This document shows, one piece after another, positions 10,344 to 26,618 of a DNA stretch of 47,825 nt. Under the pieces are notes generated by a model that was not told where the DNA came from, did not search any database, and saw only the letters and a list, made by a program, of their open reading frames with translations. Numbering within the stretch: the first letter of the stretch is position 1; the number at the start of each line of letters is the position of its first letter. The stretch comes from Acidimicrobiales bacterium (GTDB lineage: Bacteria > Actinomycetota > Acidimicrobiia > Acidimicrobiales > VFJN01). The position numbers and the translations under genes are program-made. Where the stretch lies: contig DASUQS010000192.1 of the NCBI GenBank assembly GCA_036280455.1, positions 1-47,825 on the forward strand. Reading direction: 5' to 3'.

Positions 10344-10350
10344 GTGCGGC

Positions 10351-11286: not shown

Positions 11287-12545
11287 CCCAGTTCGGGGTG
11301 CATTCGGAGGTCGGGCGGCTCCGCAAGGTGATGGTCCACCGCCCGGACCTGAGCCTGCGGCGCCTGACACCGTCGACCCACGACGACCTGCTGTTCGACG
11401 ATGTGCTCTGGGTCGAACGGGCCCAGCAGGAGCACGATGCGTTCGTGTCGCTCATGCGGTCCCGGGGGGTCGAGGTGCACCTGCTCTCGGACCTGCTCGC
11501 CGAGGCGCTGGCAGCCAGCGACGAGGGTCGTGACAGGCTCATCGAGCTGGTGGCGTCCGAGCACACGGTCGGGTGGTCGCTGGTCGACGACGTGCGGTCC
11601 CTCCTGTCGGAGATGAAGCCCGATCAGCTGGCCACGCACCTGATCGGCGGTCTGACGGTGGCAGAAGCCGACCTCGACGTGGCCGCCGCAGCCGGGAGGT
11701 CACTGATCGGTGCCGCCATGGACGACCCGGGCACGTTCGTGTTGCCGCCCCTGCCCAACACCCTGTTCACCCGCGACTCGTCGTGCTGGATCTACGGCGG
11801 GGTCACCGTCAACCCGATGTTCTGGCCGGCCCGCCGCCGTGAGGCGTACAACGTCGCCGCCATCTACCGGGCCCACCCGATGTTCGCCGAGGCCGAGTTC
11901 TCGTTCTGGTATCCGGCCGCGGGCGCCGACGGGCGGCTGGAGACGACGGACTTCGGGCTGGCGTCCCTCGAGGGTGGGGACGTGATGCCGATCGGCAACG
12001 GCACGGTCCTCATCGGGATGAGCGAACGGTCCCAGGCCCGGATGATCGAGCAGGTGGCGAAGGCCCTGTTCGCCGCCGGGGCCGCGGAACGGGTCATCGC
12101 CTGCGTGATGACCAAGGACCGGGCCCACATGCACCTCGACACGGTGTTCACGCTGCTCGACCACGACAAGGCCACGGCGTACCCCGCCGTCGTCCCGAAC
12201 ATCCGGGCGATCAGCCTGCGCCCCGGAGGGCCCGAGGGTGGGTTCCACGTCACCGTCGAGGACGACTTCGCCTCGGCGGTCGCCGATGCGCTCGGGGTTC
12301 CGAAGCTCCACATCGTGGAGACCGGCGGCGACCGGTACCAGCAGGAGCGCGAGCAGTGGGACGACGGCAACAACGTCGTCGCGCTGGAGCCCGGCGTGGT
12401 CGTCGCCTACGAGCGCAACACGTACACCATCGCCAAGATGCGGGAGGCGGGCATCGAGGTGCTGGAGATCGAGGGGTTCGAGCTCGGCAAGGGCCGCGGC
12501 GGCGGGCACTGCATGACCTGCCCCCTCCTGCGAGATCCGGTGTAG
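11283..12545 (+). CDS. arcA: Arginine deiminase
   Basis: 420 aa from ATG 11283 (ATGA overlap with the arcC stop). Motifs: [48 protein letters not shown] and the C-terminal catalytic [12 protein letters not shown]. The track ORF 11058..12545 includes an upstream read-through. Confidence 0.93.
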
Positions 12546-12548
12546 GCG

Positions 12549-12725
12549 ATGACGGACGAGCCGGGCTCTCGCTCCGGGGCCGGACGCTGGCTGCTTGTCG
12601 CGGTCGCGGCTCTCGCCATCGTCGCCCTCCTCGCCTGGGCCCGCAACGACCCGGGTGTCGGCGGCCGGGTCCCCGACCCCGAGGACGCTGCGGCGGTCGT
12701 CCAAGGAGGGAGCCATGTCGAGTGA
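12549..12725 (+). CDS. Possible 58-aa single-pass membrane peptide (below the ORF-track length cutoff)
   Basis: Hand translation from ATG 12549 gives MTDEPGSRSGAGRWLLVAVAALAIVALLAWARNDPGVGGRVPDPEDAAAVVQGGSHVE*. It has one clear TM helix and nearly all codons end in G/C. It starts 4 nt after the arcA stop and overlaps the transporter start (12715) by 11 nt. Confidence 0.4.
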   Translation: MTDEPGSRSGAGRWLLVAVAALAIVALLAWARNDPGVGGRVPDPEDAAAVVQGGSHVE

Positions 12726-14271
12726 CGTCGACGCCGGCGAGGTACCCGGTGGGTCCGAGGCCAGCGCCGAGGGCACACCCCCGGGGGACGGCGCCGGCGA
12801 CCACCGGAGCAGGTTCACGCTCCCGTCGGCCTACACGATCCTGTTCGGGCTGATCGTGATCACCGCGCTCGCCACCTGGATCATCCCGGCCGGGCGCTAC
12901 ACCCTCGACGCCGACGGCTCGCCCGTTCCCGGCACCTACGAGGAGGTGCCTTCCACCCCCTCGCGCATCGTGGTCGATTCGCTGGAGGCGCCGATCAACG
13001 GCCTCTACGGGATCGAGGACCCGGACACCGGCCAGGTCGACGTGTTCAACGGCGGCACGCTGTTCGGGGCGATCGACGTCGCGCTGTTCATCCTCGTGAT
13101 CGGCGGGTTCATCGCCATCACGATGCGGACCGGCGCCATACAGGCCGGGATCGCCCGGCTCGTGCGGCGCCTCGACGGACGCGAGCGGTGGTTGATCCCG
13201 ATCCTGATGACGGTGTTCGCGCTCGGGGGCACCACCTTCGGCATGGCCGAGGAGAGCCTGGCGTTCTACGTGTTGGTCATCACGGTGATGATCGCCGCCG
13301 GCTACGACGCCGCGGTGGGGGCGCTCGTCATCCTGCTCGGCGCCGGAATCGGGGTGCTCGGCTCGACCGTCAACCCGTTCGCCACGGGGATCGCGTCCGG
13401 CTTCGCCGACGTCCCGCTCAGCGAGGGCCTCGGGCTCCGACTCGTGCTGCTGGTCCTCAGCCTCGTCGTCGGCATCTGGTTCGTGCTCCGCTACGCGGAC
13501 CGGGTGCGGCGCGACCCGACTGCCTCCATCGTCTACGACATGAAGGAGGCCAACGAGCGCCAGTTCGCGGCCGGCCCGGACGGGGCCTCCGGCACCGCGG
13601 TGCTGATGACGGGCCGGCACAAGGTGATCCTGGCCCTGTTCGGCTGCGCGTTCCTCGTGATGATCTACGGGGTCATCCCCTGGGAGGACCTGAGCATCGG
13701 GCTGCCGACGTTGTGGTGGTGGTTCCCCGAGATGACGGCGTCGTTCCTGCTGTTCGCCATCCTCATCGGACTGGTCGGCCGCATGGGCGAGAGCGAGCTG
13801 ACCTCGACCTTCGTCGACGGCGCCCGCGACCTGCTCGGGGTCGCGCTGATCATCGGGATCGCGCGGGGCATCACGGTGGTGATGAACAACGGCCAGATCA
13901 CCGACACGGTGCTCCACTGGGCGGAGGAGGCGCTGGGCGACGTGGGCGAGGCAGGGTTCGCGGTCGTGATGTACGTGCTGTTCCTGCCGCTGTCGGTCCT
14001 CATCCCGTCGTCGTCGGGCCTGGCGACGGTGGCGATGCCGATCATGGCGCCTCTCGCCGACTTCGCGGGTGCGGACCGCAGCCTCGTGGTCACCGCATAC
14101 CAGAGCGCCTCGGGGCTGCTGAACATGGTGACGCCGACGTCCGCCGTGGTCATGGGCGGCCTGGCCATCGCCCGTGTCCCCTACGGCCGGTACCTCCGGT
14201 TCGTCTGGCCGCTGCTCGCCGTCCTCGCCACGCTCACCCTGGTGGTCCTCGCCCTCGGCGCGTATCTCTAG
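12715..14271 (+). CDS. YfcC-family (DcuC-superfamily) integral membrane transporter; candidate arginine/ornithine exchanger of the ADI operon
   Basis: 518 aa from ATG 12715, preceded by AAGGAGGGAGCC. Multi-TM protein; RFTLPSAYTILFGLIVITALATWIIPAGRY and GGTTFGMAEESLAFY resemble YfcC-type carriers. The substrate is inferred only from the operon context. Confidence 0.85.
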   Translation: MSSDVDAGEVPGGSEASAEGTPPGDGAGDHRSRFTLPSAYTILFGLIVITALATWIIPAGRYTLDADGSPVPGTYEEVPSTPSRIVVDSLEAPINGLYGIEDPDTGQVDVFNGGTLFGAIDVALFILVIGGFIAITMRTGAIQAGIARLVRRLDGRERWLIPILMTVFALGGTTFGMAEESLAFYVLVITVMIAAGYDAAVGALVILLGAGIGVLGSTVNPFATGIASGFADVPLSEGLGLRLVLLVLSLVVGIWFVLRYADRVRRDPTASIVYDMKEANERQFAAGPDGASGTAVLMTGRHKVILALFGCAFLVMIYGVIPWEDLSIGLPTLWWWFPEMTASFLLFAILIGLVGRMGESELTSTFVDGARDLLGVALIIGIARGITVVMNNGQITDTVLHWAEEALGDVGEAGFAVVMYVLFLPLSVLIPSSSGLATVAMPIMAPLADFAGADRSLVVTAYQSASGLLNMVTPTSAVVMGGLAIARVPYGRYLRFVWPLLAVLATLTLVVLALGAYL

Positions 14272-15058: not shown

Positions 15059-15204
15059 GGAACGGCGCGCGCCGTCGAGGGGTTCCCCTTCCATGCCGGT
15101 TGCGCGACCATGAGAGCGCCGTCACCTCCCCGGCGGACTTCTGACGCGTGGCGGCGTGCCTCCTGCCTGAGGGCGGACACCGAGGCTTAGGAGAGGGGGC
15201 CGTC

Positions 15205-17766
15205 ATGGCCGTGACTCGCCAGGTCCTGTTCAGCGGTCGGATTGAGCACATGATCGTGCGCCGCAGGCGGTGCGGCGCTGCCGCTGGCGCCCTGGTCGTC
15301 GGTGCGGCATCCCTGGTGCTGCAGGTGGGCACGTCCGCCCCTCCCGCCCGTGCCCAGGCCCCGAACGACGCCGCCACGGCGCTGCGCACCACGTCACCAG
15401 CGGAGCTCGGGGTCGATGCGCTCGGCGGCGTGACCTTCGATCCGGCCGACCGGCGACTCGTGGTGTCGAGTCCTCGAGGCGACCAGGTGGCGTCGACGGA
15501 TGCCGCCGGCGACTCGTTCGCCGAGGCGCCGCTGCCCGGGCGGCCGGCACCGGCCACCATGACGGCCGACCCCGGCGCGGGACGCCTCACCGCGGTCGCC
15601 GAGGACGGCGTCGTGTCCGTCACGCGGGGCGGTGACGCGCGCGCGACGGCCCGTCCGTTGCGAAGCGATGTGGACGACGTCGTCGCTGCCGAGTCGGACC
15701 CCGCGACCGGGCGCTGGTTCTCGCTCGTCGACGGCGGGACCGCGATGGCGGTCTTCGCCGACGCCCCCGACGTGGCCCCCGAGCCGCCCCACGTCCTGTC
15801 CCTGCGCGGCGTCGGTCCCGGCGAGTTCCGCGCCATCGCCCCGAACCCCGTCGACGGCTTCGTGTACCTCCTCGCCGACCGTCTCTACGCCATCGACGGG
15901 ACGGGGACGCTGCGGCGCACGGTCGACCTCCGCGGTGCCGAGCTCAGGTCCCCGTCGGACATGGTCTTCGCGCCCTCCGCCGACACGACGGACGCGGCCG
16001 ATGTCCAGAGCCTCTACCTGGTCGATCGTGACGATGCCCCGGGCAGCACGCGCCTGGTCGAGGCCACGCTCGCGCCGGTGGCCATGGCGGCCGGCGCCGA
16101 GTCGACCCTCGTCGCCACCAGCAACCTGTCGACGCTCTCGCCACCGAGCCCCGACTCGTCGGGCGTCGCCTACATGCCCAGCCAGGACCGGCTCGTCGTG
16201 AGCGACGGCGAGGTCGACGAGATGACGATCTTCCAGGGCGCCAACCTGTTCCAGCTCACCCGCAGCGGGGTGCTGGCCGACACAGGCGTCACCACCGCCG
16301 TCAGCGACGAGCCCACCGGCGTCGCCTTCGACCCGGCCGCCAACGCGCTGTTCACGTCGGACGACGACGACGACGAGGTCTACCGGTTCGTGCCCGGTGC
16401 CGACGGTCGCCACGGGACCGGCGACGACAGCATCGGTTCGTTCGACACCCGGGTGTTCGGCGGCCGCGATGCCGAGGACCTCGCCTACGACCCCACCCGG
16501 GGCGACCTGTACCTGATCGATGGTGTGAACCGGGAGGTGTACCGGGTCCGGCCCAACGCCAACGGATTCGACGGGGTGCCGGCACGCGGCGGCGACGACA
16601 CCGTCACGCAGTTCGACGTGGGCCAGTACGGCGCGGTCGACCCCGAGGGCATCGCCTACGACGCCGCCAACGATCACCTCCTGGTCGTCGACGACAAGAC
16701 GCTGGCCGTGTACGAGCTGACGATCGGCGGTGAGCTCGTGCAGAAGATCGGCGCGGGCGCCGCGACACAGGCCCGGAAGCTGGCCGGGATCACGCTGGCA
16801 CCGGCCAGCAACGGCAGCGGGACCCGGAACCTGTTCATCGTCGACCGCGGCGTCGACAACGACTCGAACCCGGACGAGAACGACGGTCGGATGTACGAGA
16901 TGACGTTCCCCGGCGGGGGCGGTCCGCTGCCGAATCGGGCGCCGTCGGTGAACGCGGGGGTGGATCTGTCGACGGCCTTGCCGGCGGGGGTGAGCTTGGA
17001 CGGCACGGTGGTCGATGACGGGCTTCCCGCTCCGCCGGGGGCGGTGACCACGGCGTGGAGCGAAGTGAGCGGTCCGGGCGACGTGGCCTTCGCCAACGCT
17101 GCGGCGGTGGACACGACCGCGACGTTCTCGGCGGCCGGCACCTACGTGCTGCGGTTGTCGGCCGACGACTCGGCGCTGTCGGCCAGCGATGACGTGCTGG
17201 TGACGGTGGCGCCGGCGGGGAGCACCCTGAGTCTCGATGTCGGGTTGGCGGCGGCCAGCGACGACGCCGAGGAGGACACGGCCAACGGTGCGGTCGACCT
17301 GACCAGCAGTGACATCGAGCTGGTGGCCGAGGGTGCCCGGGTCCAGGTGGTCGGCTTGCGCTTTGCGGGGGTTGCCTTGCCGGACGGTGCGGTCGTGCAG
17401 AACGCCTGGGTGCAGTTCACCACGGACGAGACCGATGGCAGCGCGTCGTCGCTGGTCATCAGTGGTCAGGCGGCGGACGACGCGACCACCTTCAGCACCG
17501 CGATCGCCGATGTGTCGGCCCGGGCGCGCACGACCGCGTCAGCGGCCTGGTCGCCGCCGGCATGGGCCACCGTCGGTCAGGCAGGCGCCGGCCAGCGCAC
17601 GCCCAACCTGGCCGCGGTCGTGCAGCAGATCGTGGACCGTCCAGGCTGGGTCAGCGGCAACCCGCTGGCCTTCGTCATCACCGGGTCCGGGCGCCGCACC
17701 GCCGAAGCCTTCAACGCCGGCCCCGGCGCCGCCCCCCGTCTCCACATCGAGTACACGGTGCCCTGA
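15205..17766 (+). CDS. Large secreted protein: N-terminal signal/TM segment, beta-propeller-like repeat region, PKD/Ig-like domain and a C-terminal beta-sandwich-like domain
   Basis: 853 aa from ATG 15205 (GGAGAGGGGG upstream). Signal-like RRRRCGAAAGALVVGAASLVLQVGTSAPPARAQA. Recurring blade-like motifs LYLVDRDD / LYLIDGVNREVYRV / LFIVDRGVDND...MYEM. NRAPSVNAGVDLS...TTAWSEVSGPGDVAFANAAAVDTTATFSAAGTYVLRLSADD is a typical PKD-like module. Confidence 0.8.
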   Translation: MAVTRQVLFSGRIEHMIVRRRRCGAAAGALVVGAASLVLQVGTSAPPARAQAPNDAATALRTTSPAELGVDALGGVTFDPADRRLVVSSPRGDQVASTDAAGDSFAEAPLPGRPAPATMTADPGAGRLTAVAEDGVVSVTRGGDARATARPLRSDVDDVVAAESDPATGRWFSLVDGGTAMAVFADAPDVAPEPPHVLSLRGVGPGEFRAIAPNPVDGFVYLLADRLYAIDGTGTLRRTVDLRGAELRSPSDMVFAPSADTTDAADVQSLYLVDRDDAPGSTRLVEATLAPVAMAAGAESTLVATSNLSTLSPPSPDSSGVAYMPSQDRLVVSDGEVDEMTIFQGANLFQLTRSGVLADTGVTTAVSDEPTGVAFDPAANALFTSDDDDDEVYRFVPGADGRHGTGDDSIGSFDTRVFGGRDAEDLAYDPTRGDLYLIDGVNREVYRVRPNANGFDGVPARGGDDTVTQFDVGQYGAVDPEGIAYDAANDHLLVVDDKTLAVYELTIGGELVQKIGAGAATQARKLAGITLAPASNGSGTRNLFIVDRGVDNDSNPDENDGRMYEMTFPGGGGPLPNRAPSVNAGVDLSTALPAGVSLDGTVVDDGLPAPPGAVTTAWSEVSGPGDVAFANAAAVDTTATFSAAGTYVLRLSADDSALSASDDVLVTVAPAGSTLSLDVGLAAASDDAEEDTANGAVDLTSSDIELVAEGARVQVVGLRFAGVALPDGAVVQNAWVQFTTDETDGSASSLVISGQAADDATTFSTAIADVSARARTTASAAWSPPAWATVGQAGAGQRTPNLAAVVQQIVDRPGWVSGNPLAFVITGSGRRTAEAFNAGPGAAPRLHIEYTVP

Positions 17767-17971: not shown

Positions 17972-20149
17972 ATGACCGGAGCCATCTGGTGCACGCTGGG
18001 ACCATCCTCGCTCAACGACCACGTCATCGGTCGGCTCGAGCAAGCGGGCGTGAGCCTCCTGCGGCTGAACCTGTCGCACACGAGCCTCGAGGAGCTGCCC
18101 AGGACCTTGGACTACGTCCAGGAGCGGACGCGGCTACCGATCTGCCTCGACACCGAAGGGGCCCAGATCCGCACCGCGTCCGGGCGCGAGCCGACCGTGG
18201 ACGAGAACCGATCGGTCCGGGTCGCGCGCCGCGAGGGCGGGGACGGCGAGCTCATGCTGTATCCCGAGGGTGTGGTCGACCAGCTGGTCGTCGGCGATCT
18301 GATCAGAATCGACTCGGACGTCCTGGCCCAGGTGATCTCGGTCGATCGCGACGGCGCGGTGCTGGGGATCCACAACGGCGGAGCGATCGGTTCGAGCAAG
18401 GCGGTGACGGTCCTCGAGCGTGACATCGAGCTTCCTCCCCTCACCGACAAGGATCAGCGTGCGATCGTCATCGGGAACGAGATGGGCGTCAGGCACGTGG
18501 CGCTGTCGTTCGCGAACACGGCGTCCGACGTCGATCAGATACGGGCGGTCGCCGCCCCCGGGGCCACGGTCATCTCGAAGATCGAGTGCCTGAACGGGCT
18601 GTTCAACCTCCCGGAGATCGTGGATCGCTCCGACGCCATCCTCATCGATCGTGGCGACCTCTCGCGGCAGGTCAACATCGAGAAGCTGCCGTACATCCAG
18701 AAGGACATCATCCGGCGCTCGAAGCAGTTGGGCGTGCCGGTCTACGTCGCCACGAACCTGATGGAGTCGATGGTGACGTCGCCGCATCCCACGCGCGCCG
18801 AGGTCAACGACGTGTACAACACGCTCATCGACGGGGCGGACGGCCTGGTGCTGGCCGCCGAGACGGCGATCGGTCGGTTCCCCGTGGCGTCCGCCGGCAT
18901 GGTCCGCCAGATCGCCGAGGAGTTCGAGCGGAACTGGGACCGCAACGAGGGCAACTACTCGCCGGCGCCGATCTCGATGCTCGTCGAGCCTCACGGCGGC
19001 TGCCTCGTCAACCGAGAGGCCTTCGCGGCCAACCGGCACGAGCTCCTCAGCCTCAAGCGGCTCGTCGTGAAGCCGACCGACCTGATGGACTGCGCCCAGA
19101 TCGCCAACGGCACCTACTCGCCGCTGCGCGGCTTCATGAACAAGGCGACGCTCGACAGCGTTCTGCGCACCAACCGCCTCCCCAACGGCCTCCCGTGGAC
19201 GATGCCCCTCGTCCTGCAGGTCGACGAGGACTCGGTGCACGACATCGCCGTGGGAGACCGCATCGCGCTGAGCAGCGCCGCGGGCAAGATCCACGCCACG
19301 CTCGACGTGAGCGAGATCAGCTCGTTCGACCTGCGCGAGGTGGCGGAGGCATGGTTCGGCACCGCCTCGCTGGACCATCCGGGCGTGGCCCGGCTGGCCG
19401 CGGGTGGGACCCGGTTCGTCGCCGGGGAGATCACGCTCGTCGAGCGCCTGGCCTCGGGACACGAGCGTTACGAGCTCAGCCCCACCCGCACGCGGCTGAT
19501 CTTCAGCCAGAAGAGCTGGAGCAGGGTCGTCGGCTTCCACAGCCGCAACGTGCCGCACCGGGTCCACGAGTTCATCCAGCGGCGCGCCCTCGAGATGGTG
19601 CACGCGGACGGGCTGTACATCAGCCCGGTGATCGGTCCGAAGAAGCCCGGCGACTTCCTGTCGGGCCCGGTCCTGCGGTGCTACCAGCGGATGGTCGAGT
19701 CAGGCGTCTACCCACCGGGCGCGGTCGTGCTCGGCGCGTTCTCCACCTACCCGCGCTACTGCGGGCCGCGGGAAGCTGTCTTCACCGCCATCTGTCGCAA
19801 GAACATGGGGTGCGACCACTTCATCGTGGGCCGGGACCACACCGGGCTCAAAGACTGGTACGACGATCGTCAGACCCGCGAGTTGTTCGAGAGCCTCGGC
19901 GACCTCGGGGTCACGCCCATCTTCTTCGAGCCGCACGGGTTCAACCTCGAGACGAACGAGTACGACGTGATGGGCGGGCCACAGACGGTCGCCATCAGCG
20001 GCACGGAGGTGAGGGCGGCGCTGGTGAACGGCGCCCCTCTGCCGGACTGGTGCATGCGGGATGCCGTGCAGGAGGAGCTCCGAGAGCTGATGGCCGCCGA
20101 GGGCACGGTGTTCTGGGCACCGCAGGAACGACCGGCGGCGGTCCGCTGA
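17972..20149 (+). CDS. Fusion protein: pyruvate kinase-like A/B-domain module (no C-domain) plus PUA-like/ATP sulfurylase (sulfate adenylyltransferase) module
   Basis: 725 aa from ATG 17972 (MTGAIWCTLGPSS, matching a PK N-terminus). PK motifs: LLRLNLSH, VISKIE, LIDRGDLS, VATNLMESM, PTRAEVNDVYNTLIDGADGLVLAAETAIGRFP. ATP sulfurylase motifs: LVEPHGGCLVNR, NGTYSPLRGFM, GFHSRNVPHRVHE, YCGPREAVFTAICRKNMGCDHFIVGRDHTG. Confidence 0.88.
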   Translation: MTGAIWCTLGPSSLNDHVIGRLEQAGVSLLRLNLSHTSLEELPRTLDYVQERTRLPICLDTEGAQIRTASGREPTVDENRSVRVARREGGDGELMLYPEGVVDQLVVGDLIRIDSDVLAQVISVDRDGAVLGIHNGGAIGSSKAVTVLERDIELPPLTDKDQRAIVIGNEMGVRHVALSFANTASDVDQIRAVAAPGATVISKIECLNGLFNLPEIVDRSDAILIDRGDLSRQVNIEKLPYIQKDIIRRSKQLGVPVYVATNLMESMVTSPHPTRAEVNDVYNTLIDGADGLVLAAETAIGRFPVASAGMVRQIAEEFERNWDRNEGNYSPAPISMLVEPHGGCLVNREAFAANRHELLSLKRLVVKPTDLMDCAQIANGTYSPLRGFMNKATLDSVLRTNRLPNGLPWTMPLVLQVDEDSVHDIAVGDRIALSSAAGKIHATLDVSEISSFDLREVAEAWFGTASLDHPGVARLAAGGTRFVAGEITLVERLASGHERYELSPTRTRLIFSQKSWSRVVGFHSRNVPHRVHEFIQRRALEMVHADGLYISPVIGPKKPGDFLSGPVLRCYQRMVESGVYPPGAVVLGAFSTYPRYCGPREAVFTAICRKNMGCDHFIVGRDHTGLKDWYDDRQTRELFESLGDLGVTPIFFEPHGFNLETNEYDVMGGPQTVAISGTEVRAALVNGAPLPDWCMRDAVQEELRELMAAEGTVFWAPQERPAAVR

Positions 20150-20215
20150 GGCCGGCACGAGACGGACGGGCGCGTGAGACGGAGGGGCGGGGTGAGAGCC
20201 GACGACACCGGAACC

Positions 20216-21085
20216 ATGGAGCAGAGGCTCCCCACCTTCCTGCTCATCGGAGCGATGAAGGCCGGGACGACGAGCCTGTACCACTACCTGGCGGCACATC
20301 CGCAGGTGGCGACGCCGCGCTACAAGGCGCCCGAGTTCTTCGTGGCCGAGGCCAACTGGCACCGCGGGGTCGACTGGTACCGCAAGCAGTTCCCGCGGAC
20401 CGGGCCCGGGATCCTGGCCGTCGGTGAGGCCTCGAACGCCTACACGAAGCACCCCCGCTACGGAGGTGTGCCCAAGCGCATCGCGTCGGTGCTGCCCGAC
20501 GTGCGCCTGATCTACGTCGTGCGAGACCCCGTCGCCCGCATGCGGTCGCACTACCAGACGAGGGTGGCCGAAGGCAGCGAGACCACCCCGTTCGCCGAGG
20601 CGGTCTTCGCCAACCACATCTACCTGGACTACAGCCGCTACTCGCTGCAGATCGAGCAGTACCTCGACCACTTCCCGCGGGAGCAGCTGCTCGTGATCAC
20701 GGCCGAGGATCTCCGCGGGTCTCGCGACGCCACGATGCACTCCGTCTACGAGTTCGTCGGGGTCGATCCGGCCGCGGTGCCGAACAACCTCGACCGCGAG
20801 TTCTACAAGACCAAGGACCGGGCGGCCCGCTCCCCGCTGCCGCTGTGGGTGCGCAAGGGGCTGAAGCGGAGGTTCCCGGCGACACGGCGGTTCAAGGAGC
20901 TCGAGCCCGACCTGATCGGAGCGTTCCGGCGCCTCGCGCGGCGAGGGGGCCAGGGACCGCTGCCGGCCGAGCGGTTCGCGGTACCGGACGATGTACGACT
21001 GCGGTTGACAGCTGAGCTGGAGGACGACGTCCGCCGGCTGCGGGGCTACGTCGGCCCCGATTTCGACGGATGGGGCATCGCCTGA
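20216..21085 (+). CDS. PAPS-dependent sulfotransferase family protein (cytoplasmic)
   Basis: 289 aa from ATG 20216 (MEQRLPTFLLIGAMKAGTTSLYHYL, the 5'-phosphosulfate-binding loop), plus the 3'-phosphate-binding motif YVVRDPVARMRSHY. There is no signal peptide or TM segment. Confidence 0.85.
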   Translation: MEQRLPTFLLIGAMKAGTTSLYHYLAAHPQVATPRYKAPEFFVAEANWHRGVDWYRKQFPRTGPGILAVGEASNAYTKHPRYGGVPKRIASVLPDVRLIYVVRDPVARMRSHYQTRVAEGSETTPFAEAVFANHIYLDYSRYSLQIEQYLDHFPREQLLVITAEDLRGSRDATMHSVYEFVGVDPAAVPNNLDREFYKTKDRAARSPLPLWVRKGLKRRFPATRRFKELEPDLIGAFRRLARRGGQGPLPAERFAVPDDVRLRLTAELEDDVRRLRGYVGPDFDGWGIA

Positions 21086-21112: not shown

Positions 21113-22078
21113 GTGGGCAGCATGCGAGCACTGGTGACCGGTGGGGCAGGTTTCATCGGGAGCAGGCTGGCGGCGTGTCTGGCCGAGCAGGGTCACACCG
21201 TCGTCATCGCCGATGCCGTCACGCCGTACTACGACCCTGCCCAGAAGCGGGCGAACCTGGCTCCGCTGCTCGACCGACCCCGGGTCCGGGTCCTCGAGGT
21301 CGACCTCGCCTCGGCGGACCTCGATCCGCTGCTGGCGGGCGTCGACGTCGTGTTCCACCAGGCCGCGCAGCCCGGAGTCCGCCGCTCGTGGGACGACTTC
21401 GACAGCTACGCGCGGGCGAACATCACCGTCACGCAGCGCCTGCTCGATGCGGTGCTGCGCGGTGGCGGCGTCCAGCGAGTCGTGTACGCCTCGAGCTCGT
21501 CGATCTACGGGAACGGAGCCCAGGGAGGGAGCGCCGAGACCGACCGCCCCCAGCCCTTCAGCCCCTACGGCGTCACCAAGCTCGCCGCCGAGCACCTCTG
21601 CCGGGCCTACGCCGACAACTTCGGCCTGCCGACCGTCTCGCTGCGGTACTTCACCGTGTACGGACCCGGCCAGCGACCGGACATGGCCTTCCACCGGTTG
21701 ATCGAGGCGGCGCTCGGCGGCACCCGGTTCCCCCTCTACGGCGACGGTCGACAGGTGCGCGACTTCACGTACGTCGGCGATGTGGTTGCCGCCAACCTGG
21801 CCGCGGTCGCCGCGGAGCCGCCGCCGGGCACGGTTGCCAACGTGGCCGGCGGATGCGTCGCGACGATGCGCGAGGTCATCGAGCTCGTCGCTGACCTCAC
21901 CGGCCACCCGGTCCGCATCGACGCGCGGCCGGCCCAGGCGGGCGACGTCCGCGCCACCGGCGCCCAGACGCACGTCGCATCCCAGGTGCTGGGCTGGAAG
22001 CCGAAGACCGACCTCCGAACCGGCGTGGCGCAGCAGGTGGCGTGGCACGCCGAGCGGGCCGCGGTCAGCTACGCATGA
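21113..22078 (+). CDS. NAD-dependent nucleotide-sugar epimerase/dehydratase (SDR family, UDP-hexose or UDP-hexuronate 4-epimerase-like)
   Basis: Rossmann motif ALVTGGAGFIGSRL, ASSSSIYG and catalytic YGVTKLAAE (YxxxK). The start is GTG 21113 or ATG 21122. Confidence 0.88.
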   Translation: MGSMRALVTGGAGFIGSRLAACLAEQGHTVVIADAVTPYYDPAQKRANLAPLLDRPRVRVLEVDLASADLDPLLAGVDVVFHQAAQPGVRRSWDDFDSYARANITVTQRLLDAVLRGGGVQRVVYASSSSIYGNGAQGGSAETDRPQPFSPYGVTKLAAEHLCRAYADNFGLPTVSLRYFTVYGPGQRPDMAFHRLIEAALGGTRFPLYGDGRQVRDFTYVGDVVAANLAAVAAEPPPGTVANVAGGCVATMREVIELVADLTGHPVRIDARPAQAGDVRATGAQTHVASQVLGWKPKTDLRTGVAQQVAWHAERAAVSYA

Positions 22079-22141: not shown

Positions 22142-23530
22142 TCAGTGCCGGGCGACCTGGTCGTCCACCGGGTCCGGACCTGCGGTGGGGGCCAGCTGAG
22201 CCGGGGCGCGGGCCGGCTGAAGCGTCGCCTTCCGGGTCTCCACCGGTCCCTCGGAGGCCAGCAGCGGCCAACCCCGCCGCAGGACGACGTCGAGCCATGT
22301 GCCGCAGACCTGTGAGGTCAGGACGGCGGTCACCACCAGGGTCGTGAAGAAGGGTGCGCTGATGATCTCGGCGTCGAACGCCACGCTGGCCAGCACGATG
22401 CCCGGCCCGCCCCGCGCGTTGCAGGTCACCGCCAGGTTGACGATGTCGAGGCGACGGAATCCGGCCAACCAGGCCGCCAGTCCGATCGAGAGCAGCACGA
22501 CGGCCGAGGAGCCCACGAGGAACGCGAGCAGCATGAGCGGCGCGAAGCCCTTGGTGAAGTCCAGCTGGTAGCCCACCAGCGCGAAGTAGATCGGGATGAA
22601 GACGGCCCCGGACACGTGGTTGATGGCGTCGATCGGGGCCCGGAACAGGTCGTGATCGGTCCCCCGGACGCCGCCGACCAGCCCGAACCCGGCGAGGAAG
22701 GCGGCGAACGCCAGGGTCACGTCGAGCGCCGCGGCCACGCTGACGTAGCCGAAGATGACCACGACGATCCACGCGACCGGGGCCTCGGCGGCGAGGACGT
22801 TCCAGCGGGCCCGGCTCGCCCGGCTCAGCAGTCGAGGCAGAACCGTCATGGCCAGCAGGACGTACACGACGTTGGCCACCACGTGGGCCGACACGGTCCC
22901 GGCGAGGGCCCCGCCTCCGGCGGCCACCGTGGCCGAGGCAAGCGCAGTCGCGAGCGCGAGGACGCCCCACAGCACGATGTCCTCCAGGACCGCTGCCCCG
23001 AGTATCAAGCTGGCGAAGCGGGTGTGCAGGATCCCCAGGTCGTAGAAGATCTTCGTGATCACCGGGATCGAGGTGACCGAGGCTGCGATGGCGAGCACGA
23101 GCGCGACGGCGGGCCGGCTGCCTGCGTCGCCCACCAACCGGTCCAGGGGCAGCACGAGCGTGGCGAGCAGCGTCACGAAGAACGACAGCGGCGTACCGAG
23201 GCCCAGGATCCAGGCGGTCGGCTTGCGGTTCTCCTTGCCCAGCACGTTCCGCACGCTGGACCCGGACACGAACATGAGCAGCAGCAGCCCGAGGTGGTAC
23301 AGGAAGCCCAGCACGACGGTGGGGGGATCGCTCCTGCCGTTCCCGAAGATGTGCGAGGCCGTGTCCGGTGCCAGCCACCCGAGGAGCGACGGGCCGAGCA
23401 GGATGCCGGCCAGGATCTCGCCGACGACCTTGGGCTGCCGCAGCCGCACGGCCGCCTGGCCGAGCACCGTGGCGCCGGCCACGAGCAGCAGCAACGCCAG
23501 TGTGAGCGATCCGAGGTTGTCGGTGGACAT
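22142..23530 (-). CDS. Cation:proton antiporter (CPA2 / Na+-H+ exchanger family)
   Basis: 462 aa with ~12 TM segments. The N-terminus AAVRLRQPKVVGEILAGILLGPSLLG is typical of Kef/NapA-type CPA2 exchangers. Confidence 0.88.
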   Translation of the reverse strand: MSTDNLGSLTLALLLLVAGATVLGQAAVRLRQPKVVGEILAGILLGPSLLGWLAPDTASHIFGNGRSDPPTVVLGFLYHLGLLLLMFVSGSSVRNVLGKENRKPTAWILGLGTPLSFFVTLLATLVLPLDRLVGDAGSRPAVALVLAIAASVTSIPVITKIFYDLGILHTRFASLILGAAVLEDIVLWGVLALATALASATVAAGGGALAGTVSAHVVANVVYVLLAMTVLPRLLSRASRARWNVLAAEAPVAWIVVVIFGYVSVAAALDVTLAFAAFLAGFGLVGGVRGTDHDLFRAPIDAINHVSGAVFIPIYFALVGYQLDFTKGFAPLMLLAFLVGSSAVVLLSIGLAAWLAGFRRLDIVNLAVTCNARGGPGIVLASVAFDAEIISAPFFTTLVVTAVLTSQVCGTWLDVVLRRGWPLLASEGPVETRKATLQPARAPAQLAPTAGPDPVDDQVARH

Positions 23531-23613
23531 GTCTCACCTCGTCGGGCTGGTAGCTGATCCGCTCCGGTAGGTACGGCAGCGATCGACGGCGACGCCGGCG
23601 GCGTGATCGAGGC

Positions 23614-25119
23614 TCACAGGCACCGCCACACCGCGCGTTTCACCGCCTCGAGCACCTCCTCGTAGGGCCGGCCGGCGTCGATCTCGACGGTGCCGTACCG
23701 GGCGTCCGGGAAGGCGAGCTGGGAGACCAGCGCCCGGCGGCGCGCCAGGTCGTCGGGATCGTGGTCGGGCCGGCGGCGCTCGGCCGTTCCCTGGTCGACG
23801 CGCAGGCGGACGACCAGATCCGGCGGGAACCGCTCGGCCAGCTCGTAGGGGCGTGCCTCCCACCGGGCGAGGCGAGTGTGCACGCGGCCGCCCGACCACG
23901 CGTGCAGCAGCGGGCCGTCGTTGATCCCGGGGCGCTGGGCCTGGGGGTACCGGTCGCAGATCACGAGCAGGCCCCGGTTGCGTCCGTCGAACGCACGCTG
24001 CAGCCGTTGCCGCTTCTCGCGGGCGAGGGCGAAGGCCCAGAGCGCCTTGGCCCATCCGGGGCGGACGTCGCGAGCGCGGCCGTCGGCGGCCGGCCGCCGG
24101 GGAGCCTCGCCGCGAACCACGTCCCGCAGCACCTTCATGGGCCACCGCAGGGCGGACGATGGCCCGTCCCCGCTGCCGAAGTACACGACCATGGTGTCGA
24201 ACTTGGTCGAGAACCACCGGCGCAGGTCGGCCACCACGGACGACTTGCCCGCGCCGTCGGGGCCGATCACGACCACGAGCAGCCCGCCTCCGGGGAGTCC
24301 GCGGCCGTACAGCTTGGGCCGGTCGAGGTACCGGCGGCTGACCCCCCGCTGGAACCACGCCCATTCGCGGCGCCACCGGCGCAGCGCGGCGCCCGGGCCC
24401 CGGTGGGCGGTCTGCAGCGCCAGCGAAGCCCGGACGAGGCGACGCAGCCGCACGAGGCGACGGGCGTCGATGCCGCCGGCCAGCATGTCGGCCACCGCCC
24501 GGGCGCACGGTCCGCCCAGCCAGATCTCGATCCGGGCGACGATCTCGGCGTCGGTGGTGCCGGCCCGCAGGGCGTCGAGCTCTGCCCGGAACCAGCGCGA
24601 GGGATCGCGCCCCAGCCGGGTGCCGACCAGATCGCGCGTGCGGATCTTGAGCGCCGCCCTGATCAGCAGCAGCGCCGCTTCCATGGCCGGGTCGGGGACC
24701 AGGACGCCGGCGTCGCTGCGCCTCGCCGAGGCCAGCACCGCTCGCTCCCACGGCAACCGGTAGCGCTTGAGGTGCCGCTCGCCGGTGACCAGCCGGTAGT
24801 GGGTGTGGAAGTGCACCAGCGCGCCGGTGGCGCGGTCGTGCCCCAGGAAGTCCTCGAGGCCCATCTCGGTCCGCGTCGGCGCCACGCGTCCGCGCCGGAG
24901 GCCGCACGCAGCGAACGTGCGGTGGACGTCGTCGAGCCGCTCCCCGTCCACCAGCAGGTCGACGTCGGTGTCGCCCGCGAGCGCGGCGTCGAGGTGGTCG
25001 TTGCTCTTCCAGTGGCAGTGGGCGATGCCCGCGGCCTCGAGCGCGGCCAGCACGTGACGGGCCAGCGTCGACGGCGTCGGCTCGGTCACACCGCCGCCCG
25101 GGCTGAGATCAGCGTTCAC
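23614..25119 (-). CDS. Two-domain protein: N-terminal uncharacterised nucleotidyltransferase-like domain plus C-terminal P-loop (thymidylate-kinase-like) kinase domain
   Basis: 501 aa from GTG (complement of 25117-25119, a GTGA overlap with the Wzx stop). N-terminal half: AGIAHCHWKSNDHLDAALAGDTDVDLLVD...HFHTHYRLV, a DxD-containing NTase-like pattern. C-terminal half: Walker A VVVIGPDGAGKSSVVADL and LLVICDRYP (a DRY-like motif as in dTMP kinases). The track ORF 23614..26670 is an in-frame read-through into the Wzx antisense frame. Confidence 0.7.
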   Translation of the reverse strand: MNADLSPGGGVTEPTPSTLARHVLAALEAAGIAHCHWKSNDHLDAALAGDTDVDLLVDGERLDDVHRTFAACGLRRGRVAPTRTEMGLEDFLGHDRATGALVHFHTHYRLVTGERHLKRYRLPWERAVLASARRSDAGVLVPDPAMEAALLLIRAALKIRTRDLVGTRLGRDPSRWFRAELDALRAGTTDAEIVARIEIWLGGPCARAVADMLAGGIDARRLVRLRRLVRASLALQTAHRGPGAALRRWRREWAWFQRGVSRRYLDRPKLYGRGLPGGGLLVVVIGPDGAGKSSVVADLRRWFSTKFDTMVVYFGSGDGPSSALRWPMKVLRDVVRGEAPRRPAADGRARDVRPGWAKALWAFALAREKRQRLQRAFDGRNRGLLVICDRYPQAQRPGINDGPLLHAWSGGRVHTRLARWEARPYELAERFPPDLVVRLRVDQGTAERRRPDHDPDDLARRRALVSQLAFPDARYGTVEIDAGRPYEEVLEAVKRAVWRCL

Positions 25120-26618
25120 GATTGCACCTCCATCGCCGCGGGCAGGTCGTCCGGTGGCGCCTTCGAACGAAGGCGGGCGTAGAGCCAGGCGACGTCCGGG
25201 CCCAGCACGCTGCTGTGCCGGGCCCGCACGACGGCGAGCAGCCCGAGCGCGGTCGCCACGGCGATCCCGAGGGTGACGACCGCGGACACGCCGGCGCGGT
25301 CGGTGAGCACTGCGACCGGGACGATCGTCGCGGCGAGCGCGGCCGCCAGCGCGGCGCCGCGCGCGTGGGCGGCGACGAAGGCCGACCAGCTGAGGCCGGT
25401 CGCCTCGAGCACCAGCTGGGCCATCAGGCAGAAGTTGGCGATGACCGCGAAGGCCACCCCGGCGGCCACGCCGGAGGGCCCCCACCGTTGGCCGACGAGT
25501 GCGCCGGCGACCACGAGCACCGCGTACACGAACTGGCGGGCCGCCCGCTCGTAGACGAGTCCCAACGCCCGCGACAGGGTGTCGCTCAGCTTGTAGCTGG
25601 TGCGGGCGAGCAGGCTCATCGACAGGAGGCGCAGCGGGGTCACGACGCCGTCCCAGCCGTCGCCCAACGCCACGCTCACGATCTCGGGCGCCAGCACGAA
25701 GACGAAGGTGCTGAGCGGCAGCATCACGACGGCGACCAGCGACACCGCCCTCCGGTACTGGTTGGCGAGCCGCACGCGTTCGTGCTGCAGCTCCGCCTGC
25801 ATGGGGAACAGGACCCGGTCGATGACCTGGCCCACCAGCATGGCCGGGGCTCCCAGGAGCTGGTAGGCGCGCCCGTAGATGCCGAGCGCGGCAGGGGACA
25901 GCGTGGCGCCCACCACCGCGTAGTCGCCTTGCAGGGCGACGTAGTTGAAGAACCGCCCGAGGGTGAACCCGCCGCCGTAGTGCAGCAACTCCCGGGCGCA
26001 GTCGCGGTCGAGGGTCGGTCGCAACGACACCGGTCGCGACACGAACAGCAGCGCGGTGTACAGCGCGAGCTGGCCGAGGTGGGCACCCACCAGAGCCCAC
26101 ACCCCCGCACCAGCGAAGCCCAGGGCCACTCCGAACCCGGCGTAGCCCAGCACGAACGAGCACGCGTTGGCGTTGGCGAGACGGCGGAAGCGAAGCTCGC
26201 GTTGGAGCAGGGATTCCGACACGACACCGACGGCCTGCACGATGAAGCTGATCTGCAGCACGCGCAGGACCGGCACGAACTCCTCCGCGTCGAAGACGGA
26301 CGCCAGCGCCGGCGCCGACGCGAACGCGAGCGCGGAGGTGACCAGACCGCAGACGATGGCGATGGTGCCGCCGGTCCGCACCAGGCGGTCGGAGATCGTG
26401 GGCCGCTGCACGAGCGCCGGCCCGACGAGCGACTCGGTGAGCAGCCGGCCGAGACCGATCATGACCAGCGCGGCCTGAACGACGCCGAAGTCCGCCGGGG
26501 TCAGCTCGCGGGCGAGGACGACCAGCAGGAGGAGCTGGCCGATCGCCTGAGCGGTGTAACCGGCTCCGGTCCAGGCGAACCCGCGGGCGGCGACATGGGT
26601 GCGGTTCCGGCCCGTCAC
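25116..26618 (-). CDS. wzx: Polysaccharide flippase (Wzx; MOP/PST superfamily)
   Basis: 500 aa with ~12-14 TM helices. The N-terminal region (FAWTGAGYTAQAIGQLLLLVVLARELTPADFGVV) and the overall layout are typical of lipopolysaccharide/EPS 'polysaccharide biosynthesis protein' flippases. It sits in an operon with Wzy, a GT and a priming transferase. Confidence 0.85.
   Translation of the reverse strand: MTGRNRTHVAARGFAWTGAGYTAQAIGQLLLLVVLARELTPADFGVVQAALVMIGLGRLLTESLVGPALVQRPTISDRLVRTGGTIAIVCGLVTSALAFASAPALASVFDAEEFVPVLRVLQISFIVQAVGVVSESLLQRELRFRRLANANACSFVLGYAGFGVALGFAGAGVWALVGAHLGQLALYTALLFVSRPVSLRPTLDRDCARELLHYGGGFTLGRFFNYVALQGDYAVVGATLSPAALGIYGRAYQLLGAPAMLVGQVIDRVLFPMQAELQHERVRLANQYRRAVSLVAVVMLPLSTFVFVLAPEIVSVALGDGWDGVVTPLRLLSMSLLARTSYKLSDTLSRALGLVYERAARQFVYAVLVVAGALVGQRWGPSGVAAGVAFAVIANFCLMAQLVLEATGLSWSAFVAAHARGAALAAALAATIVPVAVLTDRAGVSAVVTLGIAVATALGLLAVVRARHSSVLGPDVAWLYARLRSKAPPDDLPAAMEVQS

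Follow-up and report, generated by a model that had tools for sequence, protein, structure and literature searches.

A bacterial gene joining a pyruvate kinase (PK) reduced to its A and B domains in frame to an ATP sulfurylase is real and widespread, and its PK module is evolutionarily coupled to APS kinase. We assign a probability of roughly 0.6 to the reading that this fusion serves as a two-enzyme sulfate-activation system for sulfated polysaccharide, in which the PK recycles to ATP the ADP produced by APS kinase. PAPS is the universal sulfate donor, and its synthesis is limited both by the unfavourable equilibrium of the sulfurylase and by the inhibition that ADP·APS exerts on APS kinase; in biotechnology, PK and PEP are added to PAPS synthases against these same limits. 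The genomic data indicate that bacteria of many phyla evolved the same fix, a dedicated PK lacking the C domain. Four arrangements of this module are seen: the PK in a pair with APS kinase; a fusion with ATP sulfurylase that precedes an APS kinase gene; a fusion with ATP sulfurylase that lacks a neighbouring APS kinase gene, the form found in the 47.8 kb stretch of DNA analysed here (the window); and a fusion with both ATP sulfurylase and APS kinase.

The fusion gene, its domains and its neighbours in the window are located as follows.

15148-17766, + strand: large PKD-domain protein with an N-terminal hydrophobic segment, a conserved upstream neighbour in the closest relatives
17972-20149, + strand: PK(A+B)-PUA_2-ATP sulfurylase fusion gene, a single 725-aa ORF (Pfam, structure model)
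17981-18892, + strand: pyruvate kinase barrel, A and B domains, residues 4-307, C domain absent (Pfam, structure)
18941-19000, + strand: flexible interdomain linker, residues 324-343 (pLDDT below 50, low conservation)
18986-19447, + strand: PUA_2 domain of ATP sulfurylase, residues 339-492 (PF14306, 6e-38)
19466-20086, + strand: ATP sulfurylase catalytic domain, residues 499-705 (PF01747, 2.6e-58)
20174-21085, + strand: PAPS-type sulfotransferase, 24 nt downstream of the fusion (Pfam Sulfotransfer_1 7.7e-17, Sulfotransfer_3 1.4e-15)
21113-22078, + strand: NAD-dependent sugar epimerase/dehydratase, third gene of the apparent operon (Pfam; order matches that at locus L001)
22142-23530, - strand: Na_H_Exchanger-family membrane transporter with 11 hydrophobic segments (Pfam)
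23614-25119, - strand: c5, 501 aa, with a weakly NTP_transf_5-like N-terminal half and a C-terminal half of thymidylate kinase fold with a P-loop
25116-26618, - strand: Wzx-type polysaccharide flippase (Pfam)
26615-27913, - strand: Wzy_C-type polymerase/ligase (Pfam)
27811-29022, - strand: GT4 glycosyltransferase (Pfam)
29049-30149, - strand: Wzz-like chain-length determinant (weak Pfam match)
30085-30849, - strand: Bac_transf priming sugar-phosphate transferase (Pfam)

The translation of 17972-20149 on the + strand is stop-free over 725 aa and contains every motif quoted in the original prediction. The domain order given there, PK A and B domains followed by PUA_2 and ATP sulfurylase, was recovered by a Pfam domain scan in which each domain was covered end to end. 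PF00224 matched residues 4-307 (E 2.6e-67, profile positions 5-327 of 328); the PK match stops at residue 307, and no PK_C domain (PF02887) was matched by Pfam in the 725-aa protein, in line with the predicted absence of the C-terminal regulatory domain. The AF2 model of the fusion protein has a pLDDT of 86, and its linker of 20 residues is disordered, with pLDDT below 50. Residues 321-343 show 41% mean pairwise identity, the lowest conservation in the protein, and the linker length is kept across homologues. The ATG at 17972 agrees with the N-termini and lengths of homologues (about 720-727 aa); the longer ORF that starts at GTG-17309 merely extends the 17972 ORF upstream. Both halves look complete and, judged from their residues, apparently catalytically competent.

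Orthologues in other genomes, for which both fused and split arrangements had been envisaged, carry the same fused single-ORF architecture in at least 526 species genomes from many phyla. The sequences include complete chromosomes and isolates, among them cultured Mesorhizobium, Sinorhizobium, Ensifer and Methyloversatilis. That an assembly or sequencing artefact has joined two genes is a general possibility in high-GC sequence and nothing more; here its probability is practically negligible, and a frameshift or misassembly was ruled out because an ORF of this kind, about 720 aa long and without interruption, is found in more than 120 protein clusters and in the 526 species genomes. The original prediction allowed that the architecture could already be common and characterised. 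In the sequence databases it is indeed common, but in the full-text literature no description of a PK-sulfurylase fusion was found, only uses of PK in coupled assays. The Ensifer adhaerens plasmid record carries no annotation at the fusion site.

The C-terminal half is predicted, from its sequence, to be an active ATP sulfurylase (ATP + sulfate → APS + PPi). In the window protein the catalytic motifs read H523-S-R-N (HSRN), H529-R-V-H532 (HRVH), GPREA and GRDHTG, so that relative to QxRN, HxxH, GPREA and GRDHAG the R, the N, both H and GRDH are kept. The sulfate-site changes, Q to H in QxRN and A to T in GRDHAG, are family-wide, and one subclade is without the motifs altogether. By Foldseek, this half superposes on the ATP sulfurylases of M. 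thermolithotrophicus and Thermus with TM scores of 0.91-0.92 (0.92 for 8a8d). Its scores lie below the NCBIfam cut-offs, at 273.8 against 322.95 for TIGR00339 and 326.6 against 387 for NF003166.

The N-terminal half is probably an active pyruvate kinase reduced to the A and B domains, as its active-site residues suggest. It superposes on the A+B domains of PKM2 and PykF over about 335-343 aligned columns with an rmsd of 2.3-3 Å (Foldseek). PKM2 residues R73, N75, S77, D113, T114 and R120 correspond to R31, N33, S35, D60, T61 and R67 of the fusion, and K270, E272, D296, T328 and E364 to K203, E205, D229, T261 and E297. The family shows no variation at R31, N33, S35, H36, D60, R67, K203, E205, R227, G228, D229, T261 or E297; position 61 is T or S, and the other matched catalytic, Mg2+, K+ and PEP residues do not vary. 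In 81 family members, the equivalents of PKM2 R73, H78, D113, R120, K270, E272, R294, G295, D296, T328 and E364, which comprise all PEP, Mg2+, K+ and nucleotide-phosphate residues of canonical PK, are invariant. Near the active site, the family also shows invariant changes (K115E, E118Q, A293D, Q329N, S362A and loss of D178, in PKM2 numbering), which count among the points against the ATP-recycling reading. The PK half is the most constrained portion of the fusion protein, and one subclade has lost the sulfurylase catalytic motifs while retaining every PK motif; PK function is therefore independent of sulfurylase catalysis in cis. Since an ordinary PK+PK_C gene lies 8 kb from the fusion on the contig of a relative, the fusion PK is not the housekeeping PK.

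The gene following the fusion, described in the original prediction as a PAPS-type sulfotransferase, was confirmed as such by Pfam and by the presence of both a 5'-phosphosulfate loop (KAGTTS) and a 3'-phosphate motif (RDPVARMRS); it may start at the ATG at 20213. Because the 3'-phosphate-binding motif is present, this enzyme needs PAPS. Fusion and sulfotransferase lie in a Wzx/Wzy polysaccharide cluster, a context kept in the nearest relatives, and the Na_H_Exchanger family is repeatedly encoded beside the fusion in other phyla. The operon yielded no hits in Rfam or in promoter and terminator scans. The PK as a source of pyruvate for polysaccharide pyruvylation was considered and rejected, because pyruvyl transferases use PEP and no pyruvyl-transferase match was present among the cluster ORFs (Pfam).

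As originally predicted, the window contains no canonical CysC: none was detected in the 47.8 kb by tblastn with E. coli CysC (E ≤ 1e-3), by an HMM built from family-linked APS kinases, or by Pfam among the window ORFs, PF01583 being absent from the fusion protein as well. The same holds for the window's own clade, where none of about 19 members has an APS kinase within 10 kb. The proposed partner is thus unobserved for the source organism, in whose genome an APS kinase would presumably be encoded elsewhere. Among the 56 fusion loci with at least 3 kb flanks, 19 have a CysC-type gene beginning directly downstream of the fusion, and 22 have one at a distance of at most 10 kb. Triple fusions of the form PK-PUA_2-ATPS-APS_kinase (P0182, on at least 10 contigs; P0211; P0245) combine an APS kinase bearing an intact P-loop with a PK module whose catalytic and family-signature motifs are identical. 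Of 23 stand-alone PK(A+B) genes that belong to the PK subfamily of the fusion, 18 have a separate APS kinase gene about 10-40 nt downstream and no sulfurylase in the vicinity; at L097 the gene following the APS kinase is not a sulfurylase. Neither CysD/CysN nor a second sat was found near the fusions in 86 loci.

Adjacency to a sulfotransferase and adjacency to an APS kinase occur together in only 1/56 loci (Fisher p = 1.4e-4, a statistic that ignores kinship), and no sulfotransferase family is among the 25 most-matched families at APS-kinase-linked loci (Pfam, 136 neighbouring ORFs). This near-exclusion could mean that window-type clusters solve 3'-phosphorylation differently. No PK-domain position separates APS-kinase-linked from sulfotransferase-linked fusions, which argues for one PK function throughout; the only two group-specific residues are both in the sulfurylase half.

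We propose that the APS formed from ATP and sulfate by the sulfurylase half, with release of PPi, would be turned into PAPS by APS kinase, and that the PK half would re-phosphorylate the ADP thereby freed (PEP + ADP → pyruvate + ATP), with flux presumably in this direction and the enzymes possibly held in a physical complex. Where PAPS is made, this would keep ATP at a high and ADP at a low level and so prevent the ADP·APS dead-end complex from blocking APS kinase. The net reaction would be sulfate + ATP + PEP → PAPS + PPi + pyruvate, with PAPS passed to the adjacent sulfotransferase. Against this reading, cellular ATP/ADP ratios are normally high, so that the selective advantage of a dedicated PK is a presumed one. 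There is an in vitro precedent: with PAPSS1, hardly any PAPS is formed unless ADP is taken away by PK/PEP, since APS kinase otherwise ends in an APS·ADP dead-end complex (PMC9885120). The original prediction was that regeneration of ATP from PEP pulls the sulfurylase reaction. Regeneration stands as the best-supported function, whereas a direct pull does not: since ATP sulfurylase releases PPi and not ADP, the ADP recycled by the PK would come from APS kinase, and the unfavourable sulfurylase equilibrium would be pulled indirectly, through faster removal of APS.

Could the PK half instead be a PEP-dependent APS 3'-kinase that replaces CysC, making the fusion alone a complete PAPS synthase? The original prediction had raised this more speculatively, and the lack of CysC in the window and within 10 kb in its clade, next to a sulfotransferase requiring PAPS, speaks for it, as do the near absence of APS kinase at sulfotransferase-linked loci and the invariant substitutions close to the active site relative to canonical PK. 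However, the same PK module is fused in P0182, P0211 and P0245 to a bona fide, canonical APS kinase with its P-loop intact, is paired in operons with such a kinase at 19/56 fusion loci and 18/23 stand-alone PK genes, and has no residue that divides the two context classes. The residues that position the terminal phosphate (equivalents of R73, R120 and K207) are all kept, as would be expected if the acceptor is ADP and not a ribose 3'-OH, and we know of no PK-fold enzyme that phosphorylates a ribose hydroxyl. The proposal is thus unsupported, and we regard it as highly improbable. A non-catalytic role, with the PK half as a regulator or scaffold that senses PEP or nucleotides and controls the sulfurylase, would have a precedent in fungal ATP sulfurylase, whose APS-kinase-like allosteric domain is dead. 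It would suit a PK that lacks the C domain, used by canonical PKs for tetramerisation and allostery, and that falls short of the NCBIfam equivalog cut-off for pyruvate kinase (TIGR01064, 258.7 bits against 306.4). This role is nevertheless very unlikely: the catalytic, metal-binding and substrate-binding residues are invariant across many phyla at about 55% identity, the half that degenerates in one subclade is the sulfurylase and not the PK, and the stand-alone PKs that pair with APS kinase lack any sulfurylase to control.

A further candidate concerns window-type clusters, where the ADP-producing partner might be c5 and not CysC, acting by non-orthologous phosphorylation of APS or by converting AMP or a PAP-derived nucleotide to ADP, which the PK would then convert to ATP. 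c5 is found in 13/56 fusion loci, in 0/22 of those with CysC (p = 7e-4) and in 10/19 of those with the sulfotransferase (p = 4e-4), both statistics ignoring kinship. Its C-terminal domain resembles the thymidylate kinase fold (Foldseek E 6e-7, TM 0.63-0.67) and carries the motifs GPDGAGKSS and DRY (CDRYP), and a PKx2-adenylate kinase fusion (P0257) is an instance of PK modules pairing with NMP kinases. However, hhalign finds similarity between c5 and APS kinase confined to the P-loop (39 columns), so that c5 was rejected as a remote APS kinase homologue, and c5 is missing from many sulfotransferase-linked loci. It may simply be polysaccharide machinery, because it is translationally coupled to Wzx (the c5 start overlaps the Wzx stop). 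No relation was found between c5 and the rhizobial PqqD-like and NTP_transf_5 neighbours. We consider c5 an unlikely source of the ADP. That the window's clade makes PAPS without a CysC-type APS kinase, with 3'-phosphorylation by c5 or by the PK using PEP, is quite doubtful; if true, it would add a new enzyme for a universal metabolite.

ATP regeneration for PAPS synthesis, the reading we prefer, would if confirmed correct the annotation 'pyruvate kinase' given to members of a family that at least 526 species genomes encode, make the PK-sulfurylase family a genomic marker of sulfated-glycan gene clusters and tie PAPS supply to the glycolytic PEP pool. It would also make available small, naturally occurring modules that both synthesise PAPS and regenerate ATP, for use in the enzymatic sulfation of heparin- or chondroitin-like products. 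The gene is directly testable, because cultured organisms of the four genera named above carry the fusion.

Compared with canonical PK (PykF/PykA, PKM2; TIGR01064), the N-terminal half has in common the A-domain TIM barrel, the B-domain cap and all catalytic, metal-binding and PEP-binding residues at about 35-40% identity. It differs in lacking the C-terminal regulatory/tetramerisation domain, in scoring below the equivalog cut-off and in the invariant family signature DTEGAQ / IDRGDLSR / ATNL / LAAETA. Over their whole length, the C-terminal 390 residues can be aligned with the homodimeric prokaryotic Sat enzymes of M. thermolithotrophicus (8a8d, E 6e-77) and Thermus thermophilus (1v47, E 6e-59) and share the RN, HxxH, GPREA and GRDH motifs; the differences are the Q to H and A to T changes, the TIGR00339 score below cut-off and the N-terminal PK. 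With the bifunctional PAPS synthases (PAPSS1/2, Aquifex Sat/CysC 2gks; NCBIfam NF004040), the window protein shares the Sat-type PUA_2 and catalytic module and the logic of fusing steps of sulfate activation. However, it scores 223 against the NF004040 cut-off of 669 and has no APS kinase domain, which its relatives P0182, P0211 and P0245 carry at the C-terminus, and its N-terminal pyruvate kinase is found in no described PAPS synthase. CysDN, the GTPase-coupled ATP sulfurylase, likewise spends a second high-energy compound to drive sulfate activation, although the folds are unrelated and its coupling is by GTP hydrolysis inside the complex. Engineered PAPS-regeneration cascades and the PK/LDH-coupled APS-kinase assay combine the same three activities (sulfurylase, APS kinase and PK/PEP) with the same rationale, removal of ADP to relieve APS·ADP dead-end inhibition (PMC9885120). 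These are man-made mixes of unrelated enzymes, whereas the fusion PK is a dedicated natural module, genetically linked or fused.

Genes of the window (coordinates, strand, description)
9342-14271, + strand: complete operon of the arginine deiminase pathway; the polysaccharide cluster lies downstream
15148-17766, + strand: large PKD-domain protein with an N-terminal hydrophobic segment, 872 aa here and 987 aa in the related locus L001
17972-20149, + strand: fusion of pyruvate kinase (PK) A+B domains, PUA_2 and ATP sulfurylase (ATPS), 725 aa, uninterrupted translation
20174-21085, + strand: sulfotransferase, 24 nt past the fusion
21113-22078, + strand: NAD-dependent sugar epimerase, after a 27-nt gap
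22142-23530, - strand: Na_H_Exchanger-family membrane transporter (CPA)
23614-25119, - strand: c5, 501 aa, previously unannotated

All motifs quoted in the original prediction were found in the translation of the fusion, and a Pfam profile scan upheld its domain order: PK barrel (residues 4-307, E = 2.6e-67, a nearly complete profile), PUA_2 (residues 339-492) and ATP-sulfurylase catalytic domain (residues 499-705), with no Pfam match to the PK C-terminal domain. NCBIfam recovers both halves, each scoring under the curated equivalog cut-off, so neither is a textbook orthologue. The N-termini and lengths of homologues are consistent with a start at ATG 17972, and favour it over a 946-aa ORF from 17309 that is a mere upstream extension. 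The window has a G+C content of 71.7%, and its nearest relatives, at 80-81% identity, come from Acidimicrobiales and other Actinomycetota MAGs.

The fusion is a genuine and widespread gene that has gone unstudied. Its three Pfam domains recur in more than 120 protein clusters of ~720 aa at 54-91% identity, under source names of 'pyruvate kinase' or 'ATP sulfurylase'. Among species-representative genomes, relatives were located in at least 526, from Actinomycetota, Chloroflexota, Gemmatimonadota, Verrucomicrobiota, Planctomycetota, Omnitrophota, Bacteroidota, and Alpha-, Beta- and Gammaproteobacteria. Cultured carriers include Mesorhizobium spp., Sinorhizobium saheli, Ensifer, Pseudaminobacter and Methyloversatilis universalis, the Ensifer and Sinorhizobium copies being on megaplasmids. 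The architecture is as common as the original prediction had allowed, but full-text literature searches turned up no description of it, and showed PK beside sulfurylase solely as an assay coupling enzyme.

The sulfotransferase carries a 5'-phosphosulfate loop (KAGTTS) and a 3'-phosphate motif (RDPVARMRS), which mark it as a PAPS user. The minus strand also encodes a flippase (Wzx), a polymerase (Wzy), a GT4 glycosyltransferase, a Wzz-like protein and a priming transferase (Bac_transf); the locus is a polysaccharide cluster of Wzx/Wzy type that includes a sulfation arm, and the closest relative shares its gene order. The PKD-domain protein, whose place upstream of the fusion is conserved in Acidimicrobiales, may be a surface protein tied to the polysaccharide. 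The arginine deiminase operon (ornithine carbamoyltransferase, a carbamate-kinase-like gene, arginine deiminase and a DcuC-family carrier) is unrelated to the cluster. As had been claimed for CysC, no APS kinase, and likewise no CysD or CysN, was detected across the 47.8-kb window by tblastn, HMM and Pfam scans.

The AF2 model of the fusion (pLDDT 86, pTM 0.80) contains two well-folded modules separated by a disordered linker (residues 324-343). Foldseek matched the N half to the A+B domains of PKM2 and PykF and, at TM 0.91-0.92, the C half to homodimeric ATP sulfurylases from M. thermolithotrophicus and Thermus, in agreement with sequence-level matches for both, and returned no solved chain with both halves. 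In an alignment of 81 family members with PykF, PykA, an Acidimicrobiales housekeeping PK and PKM2 (the last used for numbering alone), PKM2 positions R73, H78, D113, R120, K270, E272, R294, G295, D296, T328 and E364 are invariant. All residues binding PEP, Mg2+, K+ or nucleotide phosphates are 100% conserved, and the equivalents of N75, S77 and K207 are conserved in the family motif tables. An invariant, family-specific signature (DTEGAQ, IDRGDLSR, ATNL and LAAETA) corresponds in PKM2 numbering to K115E, P117A, E118Q, A293D, G298S, Q329N and S362A. The family-invariant changes at K115 and E118 fall on fusion residues 62 and 65 (nt 18155-18166); E118 is the determinant of K+ dependence, and the glutamine of this family differs from both states known for PKs, E and K. 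The sulfurylase half of the window's fusion retains RN, HxxH, GPREA and GRDH, with two sulfate-site changes common to the whole family, QxRN to HxRN (residue 523, nt 19538-19540) and GRDHAG to GRDHTG. Within the family, the PK half has the highest mean pairwise identity (61%), followed by the sulfurylase catalytic domain (59%), PUA_2 (48%) and the linker (41%).

Two roles had been predicted for the PK half, regeneration of ATP from PEP or 3'-phosphorylation of APS, and the identity of its partner decides between them. Four independent lines point to APS kinase. Among 56 fusion loci with at least 3 kb of flank on each side (L007-L086), a CysC-type gene (tblastn, E. coli CysC) is immediately downstream of the fusion in 19 and within 10 kb in 22, in many loci beginning at, or a few tens of nt past, the fusion stop; all cultured rhizobia belong to this kinase-linked group. 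The PK half alone, used as a query against 1.84 billion representative proteins, returned ~720-aa fusions, stand-alone PK(A+B) proteins (324-358 aa) that share the family signature, and ~900-aa proteins; by Pfam, P0182, P0211 and P0245 of the last group have the triple-fusion architecture PK-PUA_2-ATPS-APS_kinase, and their kinase P-loops are intact, P0182 being present on at least 10 contigs of different runs. The stand-alone PK P0174 is preceded by a sulfotransferase-like gene and followed by an APS kinase gene. When stand-alone members were used to seed a metagenome scan, it found a separate APS kinase gene ~10-40 nt after 18 of the 23 stand-alone PK genes with enough downstream sequence, no sulfurylase being within 6 kb of these 18; in the same scan, APS kinase is directly downstream in ~14 of ~40 PK-ATPS fusions.

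In the window's own clade (Acidimicrobiales, Gemmatimonadota and a subclade with degenerate sulfurylase), none of the ~19 loci has an APS kinase within 10 kb. Sulfotransferase and APS-kinase adjacency are nearly mutually exclusive (both in 1/56 loci; Fisher p = 1.4e-4, uncorrected for phylogeny), and no sulfotransferase is among the 25 Pfam families with most members in the 136 ORFs neighbouring kinase-linked fusions, L065 alone having one nearby. Replacement of APS kinase by the PK half is nevertheless highly improbable: the PK module is fused or adjacent to canonical APS kinase in many other members of the family and lacks context-specific residues, no PK-domain position in the alignment separating kinase-linked from sulfotransferase-linked fusions. 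In an NJ tree built from 75 fusions, the large clade is a mixture of loci linked to kinase, sulfotransferase and sulfatase-like genes. On the simplest reading, the absent APS kinase of the window's clade sits elsewhere in each genome.

c5 could instead be the ADP-producing kinase of window-type clusters, acting either on APS as a non-orthologous kinase or in AMP/PAP salvage. Of the 56 fusion loci, 13 contain c5; it is never found alongside CysC (p = 7e-4) and favours loci with a sulfotransferase (p = 4e-4). It has no above-threshold Pfam assignment; its AF2 model (pLDDT 84) contains a C-terminal thymidylate-kinase-fold domain (Foldseek E 6e-7, TM 0.63-0.67) with the motifs GPDGAGKSS and CDRYP (DRY), and the N-terminal half is weakly NTP_transf_5-like. 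Its likeness to APS kinase is limited to the P-loop, its GTG start overlaps the Wzx stop codon, and it could equally be part of the polysaccharide machinery. Homologues number 457 at E <= 1e-5 among scored candidates, some called 'thymidylate kinase' by JGI. A 1018-aa ORF with c5 as its tail is spurious, and the ORF at 23534-24907 (- strand) is in the wrong frame for c5.

Other neighbours and domain partners recur. A Na_H_Exchanger transporter is near the fusion in 16/56 loci from unrelated phyla, often right after the fusion or APS kinase (for example L030 12221-13588 and L070 12770-14137); it may balance the cations of a polyanionic polymer, supply PK with K+ or have an anion function that has escaped recognition. 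Alkaline-phosphatase-superfamily proteins recur beside the PK subfamily (L004 12216-13811, L005, L022, L028, L035, L049, L071 and others). PF00884 'sulfatase' proteins adjoin the fusion in 9/56 loci, never with a Pfam sulfotransferase, and are cytoplasmic, with no signal peptide or C/S-x-P-x-R formylglycine motif; one such protein is directly upstream of a stand-alone PK (L091 109-978). P0260 and P0268 have a PF01663 phosphodiesterase domain N-terminal to a divergent PK (DRFDL/DRYDL replacing DRGDL), with or without sulfurylase. These superfamily partners could be unrecognised sulfuryl-transfer or nucleotide-clearing enzymes. Relatives of the PK domain also occur in P0128 (478 aa, PK and CBS domain) and P0257 (1051 aa, two PK barrels and adenylate kinase), the latter a putative self-contained AMP->ADP->ATP module.

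Cultured rhizobia (Mesorhizobium, Sinorhizobium, Ensifer, Pseudaminobacter) carry the fusion inside a conserved block (L040, L044, L046, L050, L052, L053, L060, L070, L078; plasmid hits H1 and H2), in the order LuxR-type regulator, Wzy-like gene, two proteins without Pfam match, fusion, APS kinase and, in most, Na_H_Exchanger. In Mesorhizobium, a PqqD/P-loop protein and then an NTP_transf_5 gene follow. These hosts are genetically tractable.

In one subclade (P0032, P0033, P0034, P0048, P0057, P0059, P0062, P0097; loci L013-L017, L019, L020, L033, L083), the sulfurylase catalytic motifs are gone (HxRN..H to, for example, HxGH..N; GRDH to EHDH, ECDH or GEDY) while every PK motif is kept. The role of the PK half is thus independent of sulfurylase catalysis in the same chain, and from their motifs these members look like a pseudo-sulfurylase joined to a probably active PK. 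They mostly adjoin a sulfotransferase and a Na_H_Exchanger transporter.

ATP sulfurylase releases PPi, not ADP, whereas APS kinase releases ADP, so PK could not act on the sulfurylase products. Given the conserved PK/APS kinase pairing, we propose that the PK module turns ADP from APS kinase into ATP at the expense of PEP. This recycling would be useful because APS kinase stalls in a dead-end complex with ADP and APS. Human PAPSS1 in vitro forms almost no PAPS unless PK and PEP remove ADP (PMC9885120). Quicker removal of APS would also pull on the very unfavourable sulfurylase equilibrium, for a net reaction of sulfate + ATP + PEP -> PAPS + PPi + pyruvate. The tie to APS kinase thus favours the PEP-driven ATP recycling originally predicted, but with APS kinase rather than the sulfurylase as the source of ADP; to this corrected form we assign a probability of roughly 0.6. 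The module occurs in four forms: PK or PK-ATPS, each with APS kinase as a separate protein; a PK-ATPS-APS kinase triple fusion; and, as in the window, PK-ATPS by itself beside a sulfotransferase. This range would fit a loose metabolon.

The family is common, cross-phylum, mis-annotated and uncharacterised, with a clear testable rationale and biotechnological relevance. The fusion differs from orthodox pyruvate kinase in its missing C domain and sub-cut-off score, and from orthodox Sat in its sub-cut-off score and altered sulfate motif; it falls outside the bifunctional Sat/CysC family, since it lacks a kinase domain. It may work like a PAPS synthase accessory, and resembles man-made three-enzyme PAPS cascades. 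Sulfate activation with a dedicated, fused ATP-regenerating pyruvate kinase would be a novel combination of known activities, not new chemistry.
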